From contig NW_019217929.1 of NCBI RefSeq assembly GCF_002571385.2, positions 182,648-240,228 on the forward strand: DNA of 57,581 nt, given 5' to 3'. Below, piece after piece: positions 28,528 through 29,421 of this stretch. A program made the position numbers and the translations under genes. The notes beneath the pieces were generated by a model. It was given only the letters and a program-made list of their open reading frames with translations, did not search any database and was not told the DNA's origin. The first letter of the stretch is position 1, and each line of letters opens with the position of its first letter. This DNA is from Stylophora pistillata (taxonomy: Eukaryota).

Positions 28528-28710
28528 CACGTGCAAAGCACTCACTGACTGACTGATCGCCTCCTTCTAACCCACCCCTCTGTGGTCTAGTGACGTCACG
28601 CCCACAACTTTAGAGTATATAAAAACATGGCGTCACGACTCCCTCGCACTGGGTTGAGAGTCCATTCAAGATTTTTCTGCTTTCGGTTTCCGCGTTCTTG
28701 CCTATATAAA
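28528..28710 (+). promoter_or_regulatory. Putative promoter of the zeta-toxin-like gene: E-box, full CRE and two TATA boxes
   Basis: CACGTG 28528-28533, TGACGTCA 28591-28598, TATATAAA 28616-28623 and 28703-28710. Confidence 0.5.
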
Positions 28711-29421
28711 GCTCTTGTTCGCTTTTATACTTCCAGATTTATGTCAGGAGACATGAAAGATCTTAACGGAGTGGAGACGAAGGAAGAAAGTATCTCCAGC
28801 TTCTACCTCGATGCCCAAGAGACGAAACTTATGGAGAGTAAGTGGAAGCGAAGGTTTCTGTACACGCAATATCGTTGTGATGCGATTTTCGTTTTGGGCC
28901 CTATGGGAGCAGGGAAGACTACTGTTATAAATGACGAGTTTAAGACCCATTCAGTTTTCAGGAATTACGCGTATGTAGACACAGACGAAATCATGGGAAT
29001 GTTGAAAGGATTTGAGTCAAACAAGGTAGAGGAATATTATCCAGTCGCTCGTAACATTGCTATTCATCTTACCGACTGGATCTTGGAGCAGAAGATCAGC
29101 TTTGTAGCAGAAGGAACATGTGTTAAATATTTGGAGCTAATAGATTATATGAATCGCTTAAAATCAGTAGGCTATCATGTCCGCGTGAAACGTTTGCCCA
29201 GAGTTCCTTTGGACACAGTTCTCGAAAGAGCTAAACGACGAAAAAATCGATTAATTCCTGATCACGTTGTGGAGTCGATTTTGGAAGGATCTAACCTTGG
29301 AATAGAAAAACTGTACCAGTCTAATAAGATAGAGTCTCTGTTTGAGGATATGGATGAACAAGAGAGAAATGAAGAGTTAAGACCAGCCGCTTCATTAGAA
29401 ATTCCATCACCAACGGCTTAA
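28627..29421 (+). CDS. Intronless zeta-toxin-like / AAA_33 P-loop kinase (264 aa from 28627 or 226 aa from 28741)
   Basis: Walker A GPMGAGKT (28897-28920), YVDTDEI, ISFVAEGT, LKSVGYHV and lid ERAKRRKNRLIP, in the motif order typical of zeta-toxin/PezT-like kinases; single uninterrupted ORF. Confidence 0.8.
   Translation: MASRLPRTGLRVHSRFFCFRFPRSCLYKALVRFYTSRFMSGDMKDLNGVETKEESISSFYLDAQETKLMESKWKRRFLYTQYRCDAIFVLGPMGAGKTTVINDEFKTHSVFRNYAYVDTDEIMGMLKGFESNKVEEYYPVARNIAIHLTDWILEQKISFVAEGTCVKYLELIDYMNRLKSVGYHVRVKRLPRVPLDTVLERAKRRKNRLIPDHVVESILEGSNLGIEKLYQSNKIESLFEDMDEQERNEELRPAASLEIPSPTA

Follow-up and report, generated by a model that had tools for sequence, protein, structure and literature searches.

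We analyzed a 57,581-nucleotide stretch of Stylophora pistillata contig NW_019217929.1 (hereafter the window), which carries a single-exon gene for a P-loop kinase close to the start of BCL7. The gene and its surrounding features are the following, in window coordinates.

27140..27238, minus strand: first coding exon of BCL7, the head-to-head neighbor, given for context only (RNA splice joint; BCL_N, E 3e-13)
28591..28598, palindromic: CRE TGACGTCA, 36 bp upstream of the first start codon (ATG1); one of 3 copies in the window
28616..28623, plus strand: TATA-like TATATAAA directly before ATG1 (from sequence)
28627..29421, plus strand: single-exon open reading frame of 264 residues, zeta-fold P-loop kinase (reading frame, Pfam, structural model, RNA without splice joints)
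28627..28740, plus strand: residues 1-38, predicted mitochondrial presequence with 8 Arg and no Asp or Glu (from composition)
28741..28755, plus strand: in-frame Met39 (28741) and Met43 (28753), candidate starts of an isoform lacking the presequence; many ortholog calls start there
28897..28920, plus strand: Walker A motif GPMGAGKT; K97 in 93/93 cnidarian-type and 15/15 sister rows
28978..28986, plus strand: DTD motif with D120, the predicted catalytic base (zeta D67), in 108/108 rows
29110..29118, plus strand: EGT motif (zeta E116-T118; from alignment)
29227..29250, plus strand: lid arginines R201, R205 and R208 (from alignment)
29422..30500, plus strand: transcribed, unspliced 3' UTR of about 1.1 kb (RNA; AATAAA at 30491; approximate end, with a repeat next to it)

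An earlier note on this DNA had described an intact, intronless, zeta-toxin-like frame, and this description stands: GPMGAGKT (residues 91-98), DTDEI (118-122), EGT (162-164), GYHV and an arginine-rich lid all lie within the 264-residue product. The HMMER searches suggested there gave matches above the cut-off for both Zeta_toxin (E 1.3e-10, 41.5 bits, cut-off 22.3) and AAA_33 (28.7 bits, cut-off 27). At 42%, the GC content of the gene is ordinary for coding DNA in the window. The BCL7 start at 27238 on the minus strand is separated from the kinase frame by 1389 bp free of assembly gaps, matching the reported 1.4 kb, and the closest runs of N lie outside this interval at 16484-16498 and 33073-33261. 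Stranded RNA from three runs of one study covered the frame on the plus strand with zero splice joints. Poly(A) RNA, another of the proposed checks, gave contigs from three further studies that likewise span the frame unspliced. The BCL7 intron joint 26952/27140 was present in all four RNA runs, in all of which RNA depth was zero between BCL7 and the kinase at 27806-28341. An epsilon or PezA antitoxin gene was not found beside the kinase, as the earlier note had observed, the flanks being BCL7, the interval without RNA and a FAM92-like frame. RNA reads differed from the assembly within the kinase frame by one synonymous change and by a polymorphism at 28861, where reads and three RNA contigs mostly carry G and the assembly T, changing Tyr79 to Asp, the residue found in close orthologs.

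The claim that the neighboring genes are rich in introns does not hold for all of them: the FAM92-like gene is a single frame and Exo5 (Pfam; 4278-5745, minus strand) lies in few large open frames. The FAM92/CIBAR-like frame (PF06730, E 7e-18; 32020-32955, plus strand) is uninterrupted, with an in-frame TAA at 32263-32265, and may be a retrocopy, a pseudogene or an assembly error. Exons at about 9490-9620 and 19070-21610 (both plus strand) resemble, judged by eye, the genes for TRPL translocation defect 14 and cyclin N-terminal domain 1, and their single exons gave zero Pfam matches. On the minus strand, at about 34500-57200, a multi-exon gene occurs in at least three copies that resemble each other and contain, again by eye, EGF-like, apple/PAN-like and pentraxin-like stretches.

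The kinase gene is single-copy, with one match in a protein search of the coral's own genome. An origin as a retrocopy of a host gene, raised as an alternative in the earlier note, was rejected on finding no parent copy in this genome, with or without introns. Across the assembly, PF06414 gave three matches, of which the two non-query ones are bacterial-type and align to the kinase over only 22-36 residues. As a separate observation, a bacterial-type zeta-like ATPase gene and a SOUL heme-binding gene lie amid animal-like exon fragments on a contig of 57 kb, close to N gaps (G000:C1144:2650-3910, loci L033/L035); either the contig was joined chimerically or the genes were inserted recently. Two small contigs (L034, G000:C4845; L036, G000:C2755) contain purely bacterial-looking genes, for a zeta-like kinase, a zinc-binding protein, an NAD kinase and a glutamate-cysteine ligase-like protein (by eye except for the Pfam matches), and point to an associated bacterium in the assembly.

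Homologs of the kinase were found across Cnidaria. A word-seeded protein search yielded 102 matches from 614 candidates, 44-90% identical to the kinase, and HMMER over 1.84 billion representatives yielded 67 matches, 20 of them at E values up to 1e-30. All nine named orthologs are cnidarian and comprise hexacorals, an octocoral, a scyphozoan, a hydrozoan and a myxozoan (Oculina, Desmophyllum, Montipora, Nematostella, Actinostola, Dendronephthya, Hydractinia, Sanderia and Henneguya). Named non-cnidarian eukaryotes were absent from both match sets, in which few members are named. In the ESM Atlas, the cluster that matches the kinase is 91% eukaryotic, with Cnidaria the commonest group. Trees were calculated from 117 rows and then from 79 rows, 14 rows with short profile coverage being dropped, as were 13 long branches or near-duplicates before the smaller tree. 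Both trees united the cnidarian-type proteins in one clade. In the 79-row tree, whose bootstrap had not fully settled, this clade received 100/99 and its union with a sister clade 99/98. Hexacoral and octocoral groups were joined at 100/97, groups containing the scyphozoan and the hydrozoan were present and the Henneguya-containing group was basal, so that the family tree broadly tracks cnidarian phylogeny. One cnidarian-type clade branching by cnidarian group indicates, at the level of sequence, that the gene is vertically inherited since the cnidarian ancestor. The patchy metazoan distribution named in the earlier note as support for horizontal transfer is thus not what we find, and the gene is not a recent bacterial insert.

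In the myxozoan Henneguya salminicola, the gene model is of low quality, has an acidic N-terminus and reaches only to query position 197, short of the lid arginines. Passages of PMC11034133 describe the loss of mtDNA in this species. Decay of the kinase matching mtDNA loss is a suggestive lead, and the truncation may also be an assembly or annotation fault.

The predicted structure of the kinase (pLDDT 84.5) most closely matched zeta toxin (Z 15.9, rmsd 4.0, 188 aligned residues), followed by PezT (Z 15.1) and the bacterial effector AvrRxo1 (Z 13.3), with polynucleotide kinases lower at 11-12. Foldseek also placed zeta first, in the same order as the Z-score ranking. Sequence profiles, unlike the fold, rank polynucleotide kinases narrowly over zeta. 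K97, D120, E162 and T164 were present in all 93 cnidarian-type rows, and lid residues R205 and R208 in 92. Because these residues and the lid arginines are kept family-wide, leaving all catalytic residues intact, the kinase is very likely catalytically active.

The substrate pocket differs from that of the toxins. Passages of PMC3062530 give D67, E100, T118, R120 and T128 as the contacts of zeta with UDP-GlcNAc. In a sequence alignment of 17% identity, gap-free in the mapped region, these correspond to D120, I146, T164, V166 and Y174. The catalytic base and one phosphate contact (T164) are therefore kept while three UDP-specific contacts are replaced, by I146 in 90/93, V166 in 92/93 and Y174 in 92/93 rows. 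Further, Y138, R142, D150, W151, C165 and Y174 form a set of near-invariant pocket residues that are mostly alike in kind in the sister clade. The kinase shares with the UDP-GlcNAc 3'-kinases Streptococcus pyogenes zeta (PDB 1GVN/3Q8X) and PezT (2P5T) the fold, Walker A lysine, catalytic aspartate, EGT motif and lid arginines, but is only 17-18% identical to them, has no antitoxin, carries a presequence-like N-terminus and is encoded by an animal nuclear gene.

The N-terminal extension was missed in the earlier reading, and it is an arginine-rich, acid-free stretch of 38 residues, the first acidic residue of the kinase being at 42. Among 307 ATG-started open frames of the window, this one alone has at least 7 Arg and zero acidic residues in its first 35 codons. 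A hydrophobic segment was not detected, the best 19-residue hydropathy within residues 1-45 being 0.54, and the kinase sequence showed no secretion signal peptide. Long extensions occur in 66 of 99 homologs with a recognizable Walker A motif, and their starts are often common to a group (MASR, MNLSR, MNQHL). A presequence-like composition was seen in 14 of 23 representatives (7/7 hexacorals) compared with 69 of 306 chance frames of the window; the corresponding binomial p of 9e-5 is optimistic, as the representatives are related and chosen by hand, nine of them lack the composition, and the measure is a heuristic. In seven pairs, the extension was 29-63% identical where the core was 70-92% identical, which indicates faster evolution with the make-up kept. 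Of 18 hexacorals, 10 carry a motif resembling a presequence cleavage site, R-x-(F/Y/L/M)-(S/A/T), between positions 32 and 43, a count that has no null comparison. By the same composition heuristic, a basic, acid-free, Ser/Arg-rich extension conserved in character is a trait of matrix proteins that this kinase displays.

The arrangement of CRE, TATA-like element and start codon suggests that the extension may be subject to promoter choice. In all three hexacoral orthologs whose frame runs upstream, the peptide DVI is found 11, 13 or 16 codons before the conserved methionine, and two of these frames terminate in YKN or YKK, resembling the coral gene. DVI being compatible with TGACGTCA, the CRE is likely common to other hexacorals, as judged from these peptide frames. 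ATG1 stands in a strong start context and is preceded by 8 upstream ATGs between 28410 and 28519. The RNA 5' ends lie at about 28636 (calculated from the depth in bins; 6 reads), 28646 and 28686, all downstream of ATG1, and the main RNA pieces of data sets X22, X12 and X5 begin 9-59 nt past it. Of four RNA sets with a visible 5' end, one (X3) covers ATG1, with a poly(A) contig from 28369. Since the 5' ends seen sit downstream of ATG1, most kinase mRNA here may lack the presequence; the ends can be explained by two start sites or by the loss of terminal bases from a very short 5' UTR. We give about even chances to an additional cytosolic isoform besides the mitochondrial form, hinted at by the promoter arrangement and the 5' ends.

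The closest relatives outside Cnidaria are 28 environmental proteins with 25-41% local identity, plus one further row that joins them in the tree. With profile A3, ten full-length sister members outside its build scored 178-214 bits while the next full-length proteins reached at most 81, and the best match in 802 sampled prokaryote genomes of two bacterial phyla was 63 bits. Two pattern scans of all GTDB representatives returned zero full-length relatives, giving no matches or matches to Walker A only. Scans of viral contigs with P0148, P0188, P0194, P0158, A4, A5 and a degenerate pattern as queries returned zero full-length sister members. In a metagenome scan, one of the 14 loci listed was a true member of the kinase family. 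The kinase on contig L011, a compact 1.9 kb contig of 26% GC, is 71% identical to sister protein P0158, by which one of the 28 sister proteins is tied to a genomic context. Its neighbor on that contig, placed by fold search with zero Pfam or PDB sequence matches, gave a low-confidence model (pLDDT 56) with Nucleocytoviricota proteins in the best 11 of 50 fold matches, some of them named MC1-domain; the best match had E 3e-4 and 40% identity. Mimi-, phycodna- and Marseilleviruses possess MC1-like proteins according to 10.1101/2024.02.22.580433. A relative of the neighbor, 52% identical, lies on a viral contig with genes for YqaJ, an Ulp1-type protease, RNase III, patatin and thioredoxin. We take this gene set to be typical of giant viruses.

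Based on these sequence comparisons, kinship of the cnidarian kinase with viruses is quite probable. Nesting and the direction of transfer hang on one placement, with no full-length sister member in the viral-contig scans and sister-clade monophyly at 55/21, which is neither supported nor rejected; we lean towards transfer from virus to animal with less assurance than towards the kinship itself. The earlier proposal of a domesticated kinase of non-animal ancestry is in keeping with the closest outside kin, environmental proteins one of whose relatives is encoded on a giant-virus contig, while a bacterial source has lost ground, the nearest kin that can be placed not being bacterial. Octocoral mtMutS offers a precedent, a non-eukaryotic gene, possibly from a large DNA virus, domesticated for cnidarian mitochondria (PMC3166940). 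In contrast to the nuclear, Cnidaria-wide kinase, mtMutS is encoded in mtDNA, is confined to octocorals and is unrelated in sequence.

Taken together, we favor by a modest degree the reading that the gene encodes an expressed, single-copy, cnidarian-wide zeta-fold housekeeping kinase, likely derived from a giant virus and mitochondrial, which phosphorylates a nucleotide-type small molecule, most likely NAD(H). A kinase gene of a giant virus would have entered the host before the split of the cnidarian classes. Residues 1-38 would direct the product to the mitochondrial matrix and then be cleaved, and transcripts starting just past ATG1 from the CRE/TATA promoter would yield a cytosolic form from Met39 or Met43. 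D120 would remove the proton from the hydroxyl to be phosphorylated, with ATP held by K97 and the lid arginines in the manner of zeta, and the pocket of Y138, R142, D150, W151, C165 and Y174 would bind a substrate other than UDP-GlcNAc. The result would be ATP-driven phosphorylation of a hydroxyl on a small nucleotide-type metabolite in mitochondria. By feature tests, a zeta-type small-molecule kinase outside the UDP-GlcNAc toxins, the polynucleotide kinases and NADKc is the best reading.

NAD(H) as the actual substrate is a tentative guess by analogy. It leads the candidates because AvrRxo1 and plant NADKc, zeta-fold proteins without UDP-GlcNAc use, both phosphorylate NAD. AvrRxo1, described in passages of PMC5491322 and PMC5087710 as a NAD-phosphorylating enzyme without the UDP-GlcNAc motif, is a NAD 3'-kinase (PDB 4Z8Q) that shares with the coral protein the zeta fold (Z 13.3, rmsd 3.1, 189 aligned residues) and the lack of that motif; it differs in that bacteria secrete it as an effector, with Arc1 as its partner, and the two proteins are 14% identical. 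NADKc-1 (At1g04280) is a calmodulin-dependent NAD kinase and likewise a domesticated eukaryotic zeta-domain protein associated with mitochondria, with a domain arrangement that, among eukaryotes, its authors report only from plants and algae (10.1101/521658). Its membrane anchor and 200-residue calmodulin-binding domain are absent from the coral kinase, whose Walker A motif begins at residue 91. Neither the NADKc nor the AvrRxo1 subfamily was returned by homology searches, including a word-limited one among longer proteins that gave mostly UvrA-type noise, and the tie of the coral kinase to NADKc and AvrRxo1 is a fold match only. As side observations, the coral's own genome contains a cytosolic NADK (C279). 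In Leptolyngbya phage Lbo-JY46, a gene for the nicotinate phosphoribosyltransferase PncB stands 1.4 kb away from that of a more remote zeta-like kinase (L031:3998-4921; hhalign probability 97.6), which points weakly to a NAD setting for this remote relative. Two Pfam and five short-motif searches of the coral genome gave no candidate for the mitochondrial-type gene NADK2, whose motifs introns can split; apart from the cytosolic NADK, the Pfam searches matched only a bacterial contig. NADK2 is annotated in other cnidarians.

Other activities were weighed against a nucleotide-type metabolite. A polynucleotide 5'-OH kinase healing RNA or DNA ends in mitochondria is improbable, even though the best PDB matches of the family profiles are Clostridium thermocellum Pnkp and T4 Pnk (E 1e-6 to 1e-7), with which the kinase shares the P-loop core and catalytic aspartate, a PHROG polynucleotide kinase matched at E 1.2e-5, and the copy is truncated in Henneguya, the species without mtDNA. 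Cnidarian mtDNAs are poor in tRNA genes, and those of medusozoans are linear. Yet the fold is nearer to zeta by 4 Z units, a phosphatase or ligase partner is missing here, and the arginine three residues after the catalytic aspartate, which has a functional role in T4 Pnk, is Met123 in 93/93 rows. Similarly low is the probability we give to a kinase of a small hydroxy-acid or modified nucleoside, acting in salvage or damage control and descended from a viral dioxygenase-plus-kinase pair. It draws on an extra C-terminal domain in 6 of 28 sister proteins, matching phrog_1843 in two of three scanned, and on weak matches to 5-hmdU kinase (four sister proteins) and shikimate kinase models; the D-T-D motif together with the invariant R142 is similar to the acceptor site of shikimate kinase. 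All of these kinase matches are under the family cut-offs, however, the fused domain is absent from cnidarian members, and the metal-binding HxD of the oxygenase-like domain is intact in just one of eight long sister forms. A phage relative of the phrog_1843 domain is annotated as a 2OG-Fe(II) oxygenase, and the phage collection matched mainly this fused second domain. P0159, P0164, P0172, P0178, P0185, P0190, P0236 and P0238 are putative giant-virus proteins in which this kinase is fused to a phrog_1843 2OG-Fe(II) oxygenase-like domain.

A UDP-GlcNAc kinase, antibacterial or tuning UDP-sugars, would fit zeta and PezT as top structural matches and the retention of the D67 and T118 equivalents in the 17% identity alignment. 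The antibacterial, symbiont-control or UDP-sugar role suggested in the earlier note is nonetheless very unlikely, as E100, R120 and T128 are replaced family-wide, signal peptide and antitoxin are absent and the N-terminus is presequence-like. Moreover, a single-copy, slow-evolving gene retained in a parasite lineage is, in our judgment, unlike typical immune effectors. We regard as nearly as improbable contamination, or an ancient gene of eukaryotes that survived in Cnidaria, disappeared elsewhere and passed from a host into giant viruses. Sister-clade monophyly at 55/21 leaves room for the latter and plants do own a zeta-domain kinase, but no named non-cnidarian eukaryote occurs among the 67 or 102 matches and the gene is intronless without a parent copy. 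The assembly does contain bacterial contigs; contamination was rejected for this gene on several orthologs lying on cnidarian contigs of 19-57 Mb, stranded and poly(A) RNA, and gap-free linkage to the spliced BCL7.

Returning to the mitochondrial zeta-fold kinase, a more far-reaching version, which we consider unlikely as a whole, is that a giant-virus kinase captured by the cnidarian ancestor was made a core mitochondrial NAD(H) kinase independent of plant NADKc. Such a kinase may act alongside NADK2 or in its stead, a cAMP-responsive promoter would select the mitochondrial or the cytosolic form, and the gene would be decaying only in the cnidarian without mtDNA.

In conclusion, a description of a cnidarian zeta-type kinase was not found in open-licence papers and bioRxiv, and databases label the protein merely as uncharacterized or zeta-domain. 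Its presence in the tractable models Nematostella and Hydractinia makes the family accessible. If the proposed reading is true, the kinase would be a metabolic enzyme that defines an animal phylum and probably descends from a virus, and a case of a toxin fold turned into a housekeeping gene, and would give a first handle on an unstudied clade of giant-virus kinases. If NADP(H) or another phosphorylated nucleotide is made by it in mitochondria, this would bear on redox control in corals and on the mitochondrial peculiarities of Cnidaria.
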